A DNA stretch of 63,521 nt, the filler included, from Methanobacteriota archaeon (GTDB lineage Archaea > JACRDV01): the NCBI GenBank assembly GCA_024860865.1. It is 10 parts of 10 records of this genome, joined end to end, with 100 filler letters (N's around TTAATTAATTAA, not from the genome) between each part and the next. Parts side by side here need not be neighbours in the genome. Positions count along the whole stretch, not along the records: positions 37,038 to 44,861 come from JACRDV010000060.1; 9 more parts are not named here. The stretch is one strand, 5' to 3'. The first letter of the stretch is position 1. Every line of letters begins with the position of its first letter. The notes beneath the pieces are model-generated. The model was given only the letters and a program-made list of their open reading frames with translations. It made no database searches and was not told the DNA's origin. A program made the translations under genes and the position numbers. Positions 12,626 to 40,076 of the stretch are shown here, in pieces.

Positions 12626-12954
12626 GCTAGTGAATTAGTACTGGTACGAGCTAGCGCTTCAGTCGGTGTAGGGATTTTTGGTCTAATTCTAAGCCGGTAT
12701 ACAATAAAAAATAGGGCAGTTAAGCCACCTATTGTCGTAATTGTTGTGGCAGTATTTATTCCAACTGTTTTCGTTAGAACATACCCAAAAGCTAAAATTA
12801 AAATTAAGCTAAATCCAAATCCAACTAATACTCGCTCTTCAACATCAAATTCTTCCTTTTTTGGAAATAGTGCAAGCGTCAAAAAATATCCTGGAATTCC
12901 AAAGAGCAAAAACAAAACTAAAATTCCAAGCAAAGGATTAGAGCTAATCGGCAT
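12622..12954 (-). CDS. DUF1616-like membrane protein
   Basis: LFGIPGYFLTLALFPKKEEFDVEER; three TM segments. Confidence 0.7.
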   Translation of the reverse strand: MPISSNPLLGILVLFLLFGIPGYFLTLALFPKKEEFDVEERVLVGFGFSLILILAFGYVLTKTVGINTATTITTIGGLTALFFIVYRLRIRPKIPTPTEALARTSTNSLA

Positions 12955-34396: not shown

Positions 34397-34679
34397 CGGT
34401 AACTTCTCCTCCATTCCAAACTTCAATTAAGTGCTTGAGAGCTTGAGCACGGACATGTGTATTTTTGAACTTATAAATTTTGATCCTACCAAATTCTTTT
34501 TTTTCAACCAACTCTGCTTTTTCAAGAGCTCCTAAATGACTAATTGTAGTTGAATGATTGAGCTCGGCAAGCTCAGCAATTTTTGATATGTTAAGCTCTC
34601 CTTGTTCAGCGAGAATTCGAATAATTTTTACACGACCTCTTGAGTTTAGCACGTCTTCAACCATCATTTTTTTATCCAT
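34380..34679 (-). CDS. Winged-helix protein coupled to cdc6
   Basis: [28 protein letters not shown]. Confidence 0.8.
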
Positions 34680-35868
34680 TCTTACCCTCCAAAAGCAATT
34701 GCGTAAGTTTTTGTTCAAGAACTGCTGCTGGCACATCAGGCAGGCTTATTTGACTGCTGTTTCCGCGTTTACCTTCCCCTGTGAGTGCTGTTGTGATAAT
34801 CCCATTTTTCTCGAGTTCCTTAAGGTATTCCCAAACTTGTGTATGAGATCTCGGCGTTTCATTATATTCCTCACAAACTACTCTATAAGAACCAATGATC
34901 TCTCCTGTAAAGGCATAAGCTCGCTTTGTATTTTTTAGATAGCGCACAATAGTGAGCAAAAGCAATTTTTCTTGAAAATCGAGTTCGCGCAAAATTTCTT
35001 CTCTAATCTCAGGATGAGTTTCAGCTTTTGCCTGGCGGACATATTCTGGCAAAACCAAAGTTGAACTGAATCCGTCAGCAAGTTTTCCAGCGCGCCAAAG
35101 TAGCTCAAGTGCATATCTAGCATCTCCCCATTCTGAAGCTATATCAGCTATTAGCGGGAGCACATCTCCGTGCAATACTCCTAAATGAAATGCTTCTTCA
35201 GCTCTAAATTTTAGAATGTCTTGAAGTTGGCTCGCATTATACTTTTGTAAGTAAACTATGTTCTCTTTAAGAGTGCTCAGTGTTGCTAAATCTAATCCTT
35301 GCCTAAAAGCTAAGTCTCGGACAATTCCTATTAGAGAAAGCCTTTGTTTAGTTAACCTAGAAGTCTCTGCACTTCTACATAAGGTATAGACTAAGTCTGG
35401 ACCATTTCTTGAAACAAAATAATCGAGCTCATCGAGTGCTAAAATTAAAAATCGATTTTGGGATTCAAAATAATCTAATAATGTATCTAGCAATTCTTCG
35501 ACTGAATAACCCCTGGTTTGAATAGTCGGAATAAATGTTTTGAGTATAGAATGCATGACTGAAAAAGTTGTTTTCCATTGGCGGCAGTTGGTATGAACAT
35601 AATCGATTTTAATGTTTCTGCGCTGTGCAACTTTTGTGAATTCTTCACCAAATTTTTTTGCAACAACTGTTTTGCCGGTTCCAATGCTTCCAGTAATTAA
35701 AGCTATTTGTGAGACTTCTTTTTCGATCAATGCTTTGAAAATTTGAGCGAGTTGTCTTTGTTCTTTTTCGCGATGAGGAAGTTGGGGAGGAATATAATCT
35801 GATGAGAGTTTGCTTTCATCTCTGAAAACAGTTGGGCGGCTCAGCTCTTCTTCGACTATGTCAATCAT
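34672..35868 (-). CDS. cdc6: Orc1/Cdc6 replication initiator
   Basis: YIPPQLPHRE, GSIGTGKT, LDELD, GDARYALELL, C-terminal wHTH. Confidence 0.95.
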   Translation of the reverse strand: MIDIVEEELSRPTVFRDESKLSSDYIPPQLPHREKEQRQLAQIFKALIEKEVSQIALITGSIGTGKTVVAKKFGEEFTKVAQRRNIKIDYVHTNCRQWKTTFSVMHSILKTFIPTIQTRGYSVEELLDTLLDYFESQNRFLILALDELDYFVSRNGPDLVYTLCRSAETSRLTKQRLSLIGIVRDLAFRQGLDLATLSTLKENIVYLQKYNASQLQDILKFRAEEAFHLGVLHGDVLPLIADIASEWGDARYALELLWRAGKLADGFSSTLVLPEYVRQAKAETHPEIREEILRELDFQEKLLLLTIVRYLKNTKRAYAFTGEIIGSYRVVCEEYNETPRSHTQVWEYLKELEKNGIITTALTGEGKRGNSSQISLPDVPAAVLEQKLTQLLLEGKNG

Positions 35869-36564: not shown

Positions 36565-37164
36565 AGAGACCCCCTCAAAGATGGCGATGTTATAAGTTAT
36601 TTGTTATAATTGAAAATTATCAAGCTTTTGAATTGAAACTATGTCTGACAGCACTTTCTTGAAATTAATCTAAATGGCTTTTTGGTATTCTTTTTTGGAT
36701 AATTATCACTTAACAAAAACAGGACTAAGTTCATTACTCTGAGCAAGTGGGCATCTTTGTTTAAACTTAATATTTACTGTTAGCAAGGAGATAAGTTACT
36801 ATGGATAGTATAATCTATCAAAAATCACGACTTTTGTAGTTAGGCGATTAGATTAAAGCAACTCTAACATTGATGATGAAATAAAACGCTATTATTATTA
36901 GCGCAGCAGTATAAACTAACAAGAACAGAATTAAATANNNNNNNNNNNNNNNNNNNNNNNNNNNNNNNNNNNNNNNNNNNNTTAATTAATTAANNNNNNN
37001 NNNNNNNNNNNNNNNNNNNNNNNNNNNNNNNNNNNNNGCTGCTTCATGGCACTTAATTGTGTCTCCACTTAAAATCATTTTGTATTTCCTTGCCATGTTT
37101 AAATAAATTACATGCTGAAAAAAATCATACGTGAGTTGACAGTACATCAATTTTATAAAATCTT

Positions 37165-37307
37165 TCGCAAGAATACATCTTTGCTTTAGCTGAGTGATGA
37201 ATTGCGATTAGCTACCCAAAGAGGTAGCGCTTTTTCTTTGCTACTTTCTTTGAAGAAAAAGAAAGTAGATAAAAGTTTCTTTGGTTCTTTCTTTTCAAAG
37301 AAAGAAC
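37165..37307 (+). mobile_element. IS200-type end and hairpin cluster upstream of tnpA
   Basis: TCGCAA..GCTTTAGC..TTGCGA 37165-37207; GCTACC/GGTAGC 37211-37228; CTACTTTCTTT/AAAGAAAGTAG 37241-37268; GTTCTTTCTTT/AAAGAAAGAAC 37284-37307. Confidence 0.7.
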
Positions 37308-37362
37308 GAATCGAAATTAATTTTTGAAACTAAATAATAAAATTGGATTGGAGGTGTTTTGA

Positions 37363-37875
37363 ATGGAACTCCAATCCAACAACCACTCTTTTGGCGAGGC
37401 AAACTTCCACATAGTGTTTTGCCCAAAATATCGCCATAAGATTTTTGAAAATGAAGAGGTAAATAAAGCCTGCGAAATGTTCCTCAAAGAAGCTGCAGAG
37501 AGGCATGGGATCAGAGTCCGAGCTTTAAAAGTAATAAAAGACCATGTGCATGGATTCATAACAACAAAGCCAAGCCAGTCGGTCTCATGGGCAGTTCATA
37601 AGCTGAAGGGATATTCAGCATATAAGCTTTTCAGAGAATTTCCATGGCTTAGGATCGAGCATTTTAGGAGAGGACACTTTTGGTCTGATGGCTATTTCTA
37701 TAGATCAGTTGGAAGTACAACTGACAAAGCAGTTGAATTCTACATAAAACTGAGCCAGGACGAAGAAAATAGAAAGAAATACTATTCTCAAGTTGGAAAA
37801 GAAGAAATCGAGCTAGTTAAAAATCCATCAAAAGGTAGTTATGCAACAAAGCAACTTCCACCATTATTCTTCTAA
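37363..37875 (+). CDS. tnpA: IS200/IS605 Y1 transposase TnpA; 3' end runs into the IS110 gene
   Basis: HIVFCPKYR, DHVH (HUH), FWSDGYF, catalytic Y in FYIKLSQ. Confidence 0.92.
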   Translation: MELQSNNHSFGEANFHIVFCPKYRHKIFENEEVNKACEMFLKEAAERHGIRVRALKVIKDHVHGFITTKPSQSVSWAVHKLKGYSAYKLFREFPWLRIEHFRRGHFWSDGYFYRSVGSTTDKAVEFYIKLSQDEENRKKYYSQVGKEEIELVKNPSKGSYATKQLPPLFF

Positions 37876-38779
37876 GCCACTTTGAACCCTTTTTTGTTAT
37901 ATATCCAGTTAAATTTTTTCCACCTGATTGGTAAACGCTTGGAGCTAAACCAGACCAGCTAGTCAGCTTCTTTTGATTTGGAAACCTTTTAGGATCTCCA
38001 ATTTCAGCAATTATTGTTGGAGCAGAATTTTTTCCTATCCCTGGAACCTTGCAGAGAATCTTAAGCTGTTTTTTGCAAACTAACTTTGCAATTGCAGCTT
38101 CAATTTCCTTTATTTTTTCATCAATAGCTTTTATCATTTCAATGCATTCTTTTAAAATGAAAACATCTACTTTGCTCAGCTCTCCCCTTATTGCCTTTAT
38201 TATCTCCTCTTTCTTCTTTTTTATCCTGCCATTTCTTTCAACTATTTCCTCTATTTTCTCTCCTTGCATTATCCCTTGCAATATTTCTAATCCAGATTTT
38301 CCAAAAATATCATCTAGAACGCTTGCCAATTTGATGTTTGTCCTCTCCAATACTTTGTGAATTCTATTTTTGAATGCTGTTCTATTCTGAACTAGTTTAG
38401 CTCTAAGCCTTGTTAATTCTCTCAGCTCTCTGATCTTTTTCTTTGGAATGTAAGAAGGCTTGATTAAATTGTTTTTTAGGAGTTGAGCAATCCATTCTGA
38501 GTCTAAAGTATCTGTTTTTCTTCCAGGAATGCTTTTTATCTGATAAGAATTTGCAATTATGACTTTAAAACCTTCTTCTAAAGCAACGTATAAAGGAACC
38601 CAATAAACTCCTGAGCTTTCCATTGCAACTTTTTTGCATTTGTTTTCTTTCAGCCATTCTTTTAGAGCCAGTATTCCCTCTGTGTTGTTTTCGAACCTTC
38701 TTGTTTCTTTTTCACTGCTGAGCAAAGTGGCTATAAAAAAATCTTTGTGTACATCTAGGCCGCAAAATTTATTGCCCAT
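37817..38779 (-). CDS. IS110-family recombinase, C-terminally truncated
   Basis: GLDVH, MESSG, KTDTLD (DEDD); PGIG; SGLAPSVYQSGG; family pattern stops after LRRIMVEVA. Confidence 0.92.
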   Translation of the reverse strand: MGNKFCGLDVHKDFFIATLLSSEKETRRFENNTEGILALKEWLKENKCKKVAMESSGVYWVPLYVALEEGFKVIIANSYQIKSIPGRKTDTLDSEWIAQLLKNNLIKPSYIPKKKIRELRELTRLRAKLVQNRTAFKNRIHKVLERTNIKLASVLDDIFGKSGLEILQGIMQGEKIEEIVERNGRIKKKKEEIIKAIRGELSKVDVFILKECIEMIKAIDEKIKEIEAAIAKLVCKKQLKILCKVPGIGKNSAPTIIAEIGDPKRFPNQKKLTSWSGLAPSVYQSGGKNLTGYITKKGSKWLRRIMVEVALLHNYLLMDF

Positions 38780-38797
38780 TAAACCACCTTTTAATTT

Positions 38798-38930
38798 GTG
38801 TGCAGAGAAGCCTTTGTTTAGAATCAAGTTGCTATTCGGGCTCTAGGCCCATTAATCTAAACGAAAGGCAAGCCACGTTTTTTCTTGGGGATCAAAGTCC
38901 CAAACGCAAAACCGGCCTTTCTCTGCACAC
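38798..38930 (-). ncRNA. Candidate IS110 bridge RNA
   Basis: 12-bp closing stem GTGTGCAGAGAA/TTCTCTGCACAC enclosing two stem-internal loop-hairpin arms, immediately 5' of the recombinase. Confidence 0.7.
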
Positions 38931-39212
38931 TAAAAGAAGTTGGGAAACAGCAGCAAAATCTTTCTCATTTATTTTTTCTAACGGCGCAGCCGATGTAGCG
39001 TTTTTTTGAGACTACTTATTAGAGCCCAAAATGGCCGTTAAGTCTACTTTTGCACTCATTTTTTCAGCCGAGAATAGAAATACCATCAGAGCTTGACTTG
39101 TCAAAAAATTTTATCTCAATGGCTCAGTAAAGTTTAAGAATTTCCATCTTTTCTGACTGTATTCTGACGTACGTTGGACAATTTCTTTCAAAAAGTTAGA
39201 AAATTGAATTTG

Positions 39213-39227
39213 AAAAAAACGCAAAAC
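39213..39227. other. Intact site AAAAAAA-CG-CAAAAC matching the first loop of the candidate bridge RNA
   Basis: Loop strands GTTTTGCG and AAAAAACG reconstruct GTTTTG-CG-TTTTTT, the reverse complement of this site. Confidence 0.55.
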
Positions 39228-39327
39228 TTTAGTAATATTTTAAAACTATTGGAAATTTTAGCTTTTGTTTATGTAGCCCAGTAAACCAGATTTTGATGTT
39301 TAACATTACTACTTTTGATGCTAGAGG

Positions 39328-39738
39328 CTAACGGAGAATATGCGCCAGGTATATTGCCAAAAAAATTGCTACTGAAATAATTAAACCAGCCACAAGTATA
39401 TCAAGCAGCACAGATGGGCGATAGTAAACATCTGCTTCAATTTGACGTTTAATCATCAAAAATCGATATGCCGCCAACAGCATTATTATAGCCCCAACAA
39501 TAACCAATGCAATCCCTAGAATACTTGGAATATCCATTGAAGGTGTAGGTGGAAGTTTTTTTATCCCACCTAGGATCGCAAGTTGTTGAAGGAATATATC
39601 AAACCTTTCTATTATAAAACCAAAAGCCATAATAGCTACACTTGTGCGCACCCAAGCCAAAAAAGTACGTTCATTAGCGAAGTGCACCCTTCGATGAAAA
39701 TGCACTTCCTCTACTCTTTTCCCTGCTTCAGAGTCCAT
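39328..39738 (-). CDS. DUF202/YidH membrane protein
   Basis: FANERTFLAWVRT. Confidence 0.9.
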   Translation of the reverse strand: MDSEAGKRVEEVHFHRRVHFANERTFLAWVRTSVAIMAFGFIIERFDIFLQQLAILGGIKKLPPTPSMDIPSILGIALVIVGAIIMLLAAYRFLMIKRQIEADVYYRPSVLLDILVAGLIISVAIFLAIYLAHILR

Positions 39739-40076
39739 AATAGATAAAGAATTTTCTCCAATAATAAAGTTTTTTAAAATAAAATAGTAAATCACGTAAG
39801 CAGCCAGCCTCAAATTTATCTTCCAATGGGACTCATATTTCTTAAAAATCAGATATTTATCGCCTCCATGAGAGTTTGGAATATTTGAATTCAAACATAA
39901 AAAATCTCGAGGTAAAAAAATTTCATTCATCAAATAACTGACGTGTTTTTTTATGAAGGATTGGAAAAACTTTGTAATAAAATTGGAATGAGTTAGGAAT
40001 GAGTTAGGAAAAACTGTTGGAAAATGCTTAATTCCATCTTAGAATCTATTTTTCTAGTAAGAACAGGGGATGTGCT

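Follow-up and report, generated by a model that had tools for sequence, protein, structure and literature searches.

The window (the whole stretch of DNA analysed here, 63,521 nt) contains on its minus strand an IS110-family recombinase gene preceded by a long structured sequence, and the locus raises the question of whether this structure is a bridge RNA and, if so, which DNA strand its guide loops read. We consider it very probable that the locus holds a defective copy of a bridge-RNA-guided IS110 element in an archaeal metagenome-assembled genome, and that both loops would read the opposite strand from the one expected by IS621 rules. The coordinates of all features are collected in Table 1.

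Table 1. Features of the IS110 locus in window coordinates; ranges written high to low follow the minus strand.
Feature	Position	Strand	Basis
IS200/IS605-family tnpA adjoining the truncated IS110 gene	37363..37875	+	Pfam, NCBIfam
Truncated IS110-family recombinase gene	37850..38779	-	Pfam, NCBIfam, tblastn, IS621 structure 8wt6
Putative bridge RNA core, three-way junction, 133 nt	38798..38930	-	Fold z, covariance model R1, covariation in relatives
Closing stem P1, GTGTGCAGAGAA/TTCTCTGCACAC	38930-38919 / 38809-38798	-	Read in sequence
Arm 1, predicted target-binding loop, with inner hairpin	38870..38918	-	Junction and intact-site matches; register from model alignment
Arm 1 outer stem	38918-38914 / 38874-38870	-	
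Arm 1 5' side, GGTTTTGCGTTT	38913-38902	-	
Arm 1 inner hairpin	38901-38888	-	
Arm 1 3' side, CAAGAAAAAACGT	38887-38875	-	
Arm 2, predicted donor-binding loop	38810..38869	-	Homologous words in L081, L082, L083, L010
Arm 2 stems	38869-38864 / 38815-38810 and 38862-38856 / 38822-38816	-	
Arm 2 conserved inner hairpin, GGGC/GCCC	38850-38838	-	
Arm 2 3' side, GAATAGC-AA-CT	38837-38827	-	
Outer left end	38931..39000	-	Hexamer/hairpin/TTAGA order common to relatives; similarity stops at hexamer
CG dinucleotide, copied by arm 1 handshake position	39000-38999	-	
Hexamer CTACAT	38998-38993	-	
GC hairpin CGGC-TGC-GCCG	38992-38982	-	
Occupied half-site, flank CAAAAA + proposed core AA (39002-39001), adjoining the left end	39001..39008	-	8-nt arm 1 match
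Unoccupied target copy, inverted relative to the occupied site	39213..39227	-	Exact 14-mer; arm 1 matches
Parts of the unoccupied copy: GTTTTGCG; proposed core TT; T run	39227-39220; 39219-39218; 39217-39213	-	

The open frame of the recombinase gene starts at 38779 and encodes both domains that characterize the IS110 family, an N-terminal DEDD (RuvC-like) domain and a C-terminal Tnp domain: Pfam returned DEDD_Tnp_IS110 (PF01548) at 1.1e-31 and Transposase_20 (PF02371) at 5.7e-23. The NCBIfam model NF033542, 'IS110 family RNA-guided transposase', scored 256 bits (cut-off 140) over profile positions 1-291 of 343. Alignment to a solved structure, that of the IS621 transposase 8wt6 (E = 1.4e-12), showed conservation of the D, E, D, D and S residues, with the paired blocks (window/8wt6_A) GLDVHKD/GIDTAKE, MESSG/IEATG, KTDTLDS/KTDTVDA and YQSGG/YESGS. 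We take the IS621 catalytic residues to be D11, E60, D102, D105 and S241, a numbering that in part follows PMC11208158. For the window clade, catalysis is presumed.

Homologues of the protein are ~408 aa long, and with two of them as tblastn queries the window gene aligned to residues 1-314, ending at 37850. The missing C-terminal ~94 aa were not found elsewhere in the window by tblastn, and the protein lacks the intact C-terminal part of a full-length member; the window copy is a fragment of a member of the IS110-family bridge recombinases. The right end of the element is likewise absent from the window. Having lost its right end and everything in its gene past ~residue 314 of ~408, and being followed by an IS200/IS605 tnpA and then an assembly gap, this copy would now be unable to move by itself.

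The adjoining tnpA encodes a complete Y1 domain (Pfam Y1_Tnp 5.6e-32; NCBIfam transpos_IS200 119 bits, profile positions 2-125 of 126), and its frame remains open for ~25 nt into the IS110 sequence. Two strong hairpins, with 11-nt and 14-nt arms, lie upstream of it at 37241-37310. An N-gap with a linker follows ~800 bp beyond 37850: at ~36937-37037, two N runs flank the linker TTAATTAATTAA, and the IS110/IS200 pair lies at a contig end in a window joined from contigs. We placed Logan contigs from two DNA runs, X1 and X2, over 37100-39400; runs X3 and X4 yielded none for this stretch. X1, perhaps the source sample (0.76 of the sampled words are present in it), has a contig that begins exactly at 37846, at the IS110/tnpA junction. 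This start fits a repeat branch point, so a real junction and a chimera look alike here, and the gene may appear truncated because the assembly joined unrelated sequences at the edge of a repeat. A Cdc6/Orc1 gene at 34675-35868, near the IS110 locus, points to an archaeal context; together with the IS110 domains, it bears out the initial annotation, which had described an archaeal IS110-family element.

A metagenome scan found 357 stretches encoding relatives of the protein, of which the best 80 were kept. The closest among these best 80 of 357 were L081-L084, 58-60% identical to the window protein, and L085, 49% identical; genome contigs held no protein relative above 53% identity. Upstream of L081-L085, the architecture of the window recurs.

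The initial annotation had read, on the minus strand, a closing stem enclosing two arms, the second with an inner GGGC/GCCC hairpin, and had proposed a fold calculation and a covariance model built from homologous left ends as checks. All of these elements are present on that strand, and both checks agreed with it. RNAfold gave -57.7 kcal/mol for 38790-38935 (minus strand) against -33.3 +/- 3.8 for shuffled sequences (z = -6.44; 0 of 200 shuffles as low). A covariance model, R1, trained on L081-L084 only, with the window left out, recognized the bridge-RNA-like structure upstream of the gene at 38792-38936 (minus strand) with 69.2 bits and E = 2.4e-15. The structure assigned to the L081-L084 alignment has 35 pairs in six helices; standard pairs occupy 94.3% of its 140 cells, six pairs changed on both sides, none of 500 shuffles did equally well, and sliding the partners lowered pairing to 41-54%. 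The helices contain 18 G-U cells against one C-A cell, which identifies the gene-sense strand as the RNA strand.

R1 also found L085 at 31 bits. It returned no further member in 156-161 other loci and no match to IS621, and a second, acidobacterial clade (~40% protein identity) was therefore compared by eye and with regular expressions. A weak R1 match at 12826-12915 (E = 0.29) was taken as noise. Rfam returned nothing relevant over 37000-40000, the sole sub-threshold match, MIR1514, being unrelated (E = 0.036, 27.9 bits, gathering 90). The window has, as bridge RNAs do, a structured RNA with two internal guide loops in a long non-coding end, and we identify the sequence at 38930-38798 as the putative bridge RNA of the IS110 element; we infer its transcription. 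One relative, L082 (1196-1352), is possibly a decaying copy: three G-G mismatches interrupt its otherwise conserved arm 2 inner hairpin, and its two junction cores differ.

The boundary of the element could be placed from its relatives. The order of hexamer, GC hairpin and TTAGA-type stretch is common to L081-L084 and the acidobacterial clade, and inward of the GC hairpin of the window a TTAGA-type stretch is followed by the leader. Relatives share the left end from the hexamer inward only, with unrelated sequences upstream, and in the acidobacterial clade, which has the same hexamer and hairpin, ...GATGAGTT stands directly before the hexamer in 44 of 45 motif hits. These two observations set the left end of the window element at 39000/38999, where the initial annotation had presumed it. 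An unbroken 8-nt same-sense match to the 3' side of arm 1, AAAAAACG, ends at this boundary.

A further match lies 215 bp upstream. The 14-mer GTTTTGCGTTTTTT at 39214-39227 (minus strand) is a single exact copy in the window, with 0.01 expected, and would be a second, unoccupied target; with up to two mismatches the 14-mer is not enriched in the window (2 found versus 2.64 expected). GCGTTTTTT occurs twice in the 63.5 kb, at 38998-39006 (plus strand), which is the element end, and at 39214-39222 (minus strand). The 5' side of arm 1 agrees with the intact site over 11 nt, and the 3' side does so as its reverse complement; together the two sides read GTTTTGCG-TT-TTTT, which is intact at 39227-39213 (minus strand). 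The full inverted copy claimed at the outset is thus there as an exact 14-mer and the only one in the window, its start being 39214 and not 39213. A variant with one T fewer at 39213, present in three contigs in each of X1 and X2, would match the six T's of the guide followed by C.

In X2, cover is zero over 37870-38947, that is, over the IS110 gene and the bridge RNA, and the tnpA side is covered; the summed contig depth is 72-246 over 39025-39255 and 525 at 39213, values that add up contigs and organisms and hence give no copy number. The stretch 39025-39255 is multi-copy in the two metagenome runs, and its depth in X2 without IS110 cover places the intact target in multi-copy DNA. This stretch is possibly a repeat element of small size, or else the distal end of the IS200/IS605-like element that received the IS110 insertion. 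Inverted-repeat scans identified no IS200/IS605 right end at 39001-39330, the 260-nt stretch 39003-39262 had no match in 38 genomes of the phylum of G001 (which may not be the phylum of the window), and a repeat search found no second copy of the IS110 element in the window.

Guide-flank covariation, another check proposed with the initial annotation, was assessed in six lineages (the window, L081-L084 and L010) by comparing the 3' side of arm 1 with 23 nt at the left junction; loop-side boundaries (helix limits) were set by eye, and the permutation test was unanchored in register. The longest same-sense words of the cognate pairs measured 8, 6, 7, 9, 8 and 9 nt; those of non-cognate pairs averaged 4.27 nt and did not exceed 7 nt. 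Several of the guide words are low-complexity, A/T-rich sequence. Only 1 of 720 permutations attained the diagonal sum of 47, so that each arm 1 tracks, through its 3' side, the left flank of its own element, as the check had anticipated. None of the three control comparisons in the six lineages was enriched, namely the reverse complement of the 3' side (649/720), the 5' side read in the same sense, as the IS621 rule would require (643/720), and the 5' side reverse-complemented (216/720). Each match runs to the boundary and then two bases further, into the element; these bases are CG in the window, AA in L081-L083, AC in L084 and TT in L010. The handshake bases of IS621 behave likewise after strand exchange, as described in PMC11208158.

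The left half of the target is accordingly copied in 6/6 lineages. The right half is found in L082 and L010, where the reverse complement of the arm 1 5' side matches the right flank over 7 and 8 nt, and in the intact site of the window; it is weak in L081 and L083, where the right flank matches only ~3 nt past the core and longer shared words are off-register A-runs, which counts against the simplest reading. We regard arm 1 as the predicted target-binding loop, the role that had already been given to loop 1 and that the 14-mer spelled by its two sides at 39214-39227 also points to.

For arm 2, the initial annotation had found no donor sequence. This holds for the window, whose right end is missing, and does not hold for the relatives: in all four for which a right end is available (L081, L082, L083 and L010), the 8-nt word that comes next to the arm 2 inner hairpin on its 3' side recurs, at the homologous place, in the right end and core of the same element. 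The words vary at just the positions where the right ends do (ATGACAAA, ATGGCAGA, ATGGCAAA and CGAGGGAG), that is, the changes are compensatory. From these four relatives, the window word ATAGC-AA-C predicts the lost right end with a core of AA, and the right junction of the element would have read ...ATAGC, then AA, then a CGCAAAAC-like flank. By homology with the relatives, arm 2 is the predicted donor-binding loop.

A guide for the left tip (left donor) gave no convincing match in any member in the several registers tried. The 5' side of arm 2 does show a same-sense resemblance to the part of the left end that follows the GC hairpin (38863-38851 versus 38981-38962 in the window; likewise in L081-L084 and L010). 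The motifs concerned are unrelated: TTAGA-type for the window clade, CACAACG for the acidobacterial one. The resemblance was reached by 43 of 720 permutations, a weak result because the motif is common within the clade, and it does not fit the expected left-donor guide.

In the model alignment, the TT of the window falls under the CT of L082 at the core position of the 5' side, one step 3' of CG. Given this alignment and the AA at the core position of the donor loop, the core is probably AA in gene sense (TT on the other strand), and CG the handshake dinucleotide. The junction cores of L082 differ from each other, AA at the left and AG at the right.

These matches have a common polarity. In arm 1 the left-end flank is copied by the 3' side (6/6 lineages), and in arm 2 the right end and core are, again by the 3' side (4/4), whereas under the IS621 strand convention it is the 5' side that has the same sense as the left flank and the right end. 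As a positive control, we took an E. coli W copy from among the genes annotated there as 'IS110-like element IS621 family transposase' and compared it with K-12, a strain that has no IS110 gene and in which the site, between yaaX and yaaA, is empty. The control junction reads ...ATCAGGCCT up to the boundary, followed by TGTAT. At the left end, ATCGGGCCT precedes and GTAG follows the inner hairpin of loop 1; the right end reads ACAGTAT-CT, and ACAGTATC precedes the inner hairpin of loop 2. IS621 thus carries its same-sense copies of left flank and right end on the 5' sides, in agreement with PMC11208160 and PMC11208158. In the published account, the left target becomes joined to the right donor, the latter being the left end (PMC11208160, PMC11208158, PMC13626964).

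When the loops of the window clade are read on the opposite strand, they fit the IS621 format: the longer guide (8-9 nt + core) comes 5' and the shorter one, with the core and two handshake bases, 3', and the core is TT or CT, with T second. The arrangement can therefore be described as a mirror of IS621, and the guide logic of IS621, which the initial annotation had invoked, applies with the strand reversed.

By homology with IS621, a recombinase tetramer would hold the bridge RNA. Arm 1 would pair with both strands of the target, GTTTTGCG-TT-TTTT on the minus strand, and arm 2 with the junction of the circularized element; strand exchange around the 2-nt core would follow. The 3' side of arm 1 carries the sequence of the left-end flank, the core and the first two element bases (handshake), and its 5' side would be the reverse complement of the core and the flank beyond the right end. 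The cargo would in effect be inverted relative to the recombination junction.

Two other readings of the same matches retain the IS621 strand sign. The initial annotation had favored a palindromic CG core that would permit insertion either way, so that the half-site at 38999 would be an inverted insertion. CG is indeed present in both guide sides and in both sites, and the 14-mer predicted from such a guide exists. However, passages of PMC11208160 and PMC11208158 make orientation depend on the pairing of guide sides with target halves and not on the core alone; the model alignment places the core one step 3' of CG, and the donor loop has AA at the core position. The same inversion, moreover, is seen in 5/5 other lineages, whose AA or AG cores are not palindromic. 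With the arrangement common to all six lineages, a palindromic core is unneeded, and we consider this explanation unlikely. An even less probable one moves the left end to 39219: GTTTTGCG at 39227-39220 would be the left target plus core, and the 220 bp to 38999 a long left end. In its favor, GTTTTGCGTTT, found at 39227 on the element strand, is identical to the 5' side of arm 1. Nevertheless, similarity between the left ends of the relatives begins at the hexamer and GC hairpin, the sequences upstream being unrelated, X2 covers 39025-39255 at a depth of 72-246 and has none over 37870-38947, and the first element bases would have to equal the right target half by coincidence; we give this version almost no weight.

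It is similarly very improbable that the structure is a mere leader regulating translation or transcription of the recombinase, the flank matches arising by chance in A/T-rich DNA. The low complexity of the guide words is compatible with chance matching, and RNAfold closes part of loop 1 through U-A pairs. The difference between cognate and non-cognate pairs (1/720) and the compensatory changes between arm 2 and the right ends (4/4) argue against it, as does a loop layout like that of IS621, with inner hairpins that share GGTTCTAACC in L081 and IS621. The opposite-strand bridge RNA accordingly remains our preferred description of the locus.

How far this polarity extends is a more tentative matter. 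A widespread archaeal and bacterial IS110 clade in which all four guide segments read the strand opposite to the RNA and recombinase genes is possible, although we hold it to be somewhat less probable than not; the proposal draws on the window, L081-L084 and the acidobacterial group, with the recombinase represented by more than 120 protein clusters at 52-60% identity. In the protein clade, 7,872 of 8,000 scored candidates had E <= 1e-30, and the best 119 of those candidates, besides the window protein, were 52-60% identical, mostly 401-407 aa long and mostly on contigs of 1.3-2.6 kb. Passages of 10.1101/2024.06.21.599552 report 662 archaeal IS110 recombinases in 2,835 archaeal genomes.

L081-L083 have a 16-nt subterminal inverted repeat, with CATGAAAAACCTTTTG ~35 nt inside the left end and its complement 2 nt from the right tip; it is asymmetrically placed and resembles the long repeats of the IS1111 group. 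In acidobacterial relatives (L007, L008, L012, L048, L049 and others), an IS110-like gene nearly always lies less than ~100 bp downstream of the right end; its product starts MKK... and continues LTIGLDLGD. These relatives seem to insert at the left end of another kind of IS110 element, so that one insertion sequence is nested beside the next. Among the acidobacterial copies, which are not independent of each other, guide variants and right-flank variants are only partly associated, and we draw no evidence from this.

Much of the system is shared with IS621 as described in PMC11208160 and PMC11208158. Both have a DEDD/RuvC-like domain and a Tnp domain with the catalytic Ser, an RNA in a long left end upstream of the gene, and a short right end (for the window, seen in its clade); in both, a target loop precedes a donor loop, and each loop consists of a 5' guide, an inner hairpin and a 3' guide, with the core within both guide sides and two handshake bases after the core on the 3' sides. 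The differences lie in the side that carries the copies, 5' in IS621 and 3' in the window clade; in the 12-bp closing stem, which encloses both arms in a three-way junction, where IS621 has a separate 5' stem-loop; in the core, AA/AG in gene sense (TT/CT on the other strand) and unlike that of IS621; and in the protein, ~408 aa against 326-328 in IS621, with conserved blocks alone aligning. A 10-nt word in the closing stem of the window, GTGCAGAGAA, recurs together with its complement in the IS621 5' stem-loop (L169), probably by chance, since the closer relatives of the window are without it.

Likeness to the IS1111 group, as treated in PMC11208160, extends to the long subterminal inverted repeats (16 nt in L081-L083) and to a donor-binding part within a multi-branch structure. 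IS1111 elements, however, have their RNA in the right end, downstream of the gene, and the window has it in the left end, upstream. The clade is set apart by the closing stem with its three-way junction, by a long subterminal repeat combined with a left-end RNA, and by the mirror polarity. Targeting of repeats and mobile elements has precedents in IS621, found in REP sequences, and in IS4321/IS5075, found in Tn21 inverted repeats (PMC11208160); the multi-copy stretch around the window's target and the IS110-like gene adjoining the acidobacterial relatives resemble these cases.

The Evo-PIN/COMPASS preprint of 2026 (10.64898/2026.10.21.760802) reports in its text 32,190 predicted bridge RNAs in 86 covariance-model clusters, many with structures unlike that of IS621 that nonetheless covary with target and donor. 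The window clade, being abundant in metagenomes, is probably inside that set. The preprint text mentions no cluster with an inverted strand sign relative to the gene, and full-text literature searches gave no mention of inverted guide polarity; figures and supplements may show one. The system is therefore a known one, of which the polarity variant is apparently new.

For the host genome, the element is an ordinary, dead insertion sequence. Its interest lies in the family, since programmable DNA-insertion tools are now being sought among bridge recombinases and built from them, and assigning their guides requires knowing which loop side corresponds to which strand and half-site. The locus and its relatives offer a natural example in which the IS621 rules (guide lengths, core overlap and handshake bases) operate on the other strand, and they advise caution in automated guide calling. 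If a widespread clade with this polarity exists, pipelines and design rules that carry the IS621 sign would mis-assign left and right guides in such clades, and evolution would be free to turn the guide RNA gene around relative to the junction. The locus and its relatives also hint that junction and cargo can be re-oriented relative to each other as IS110 elements evolve.
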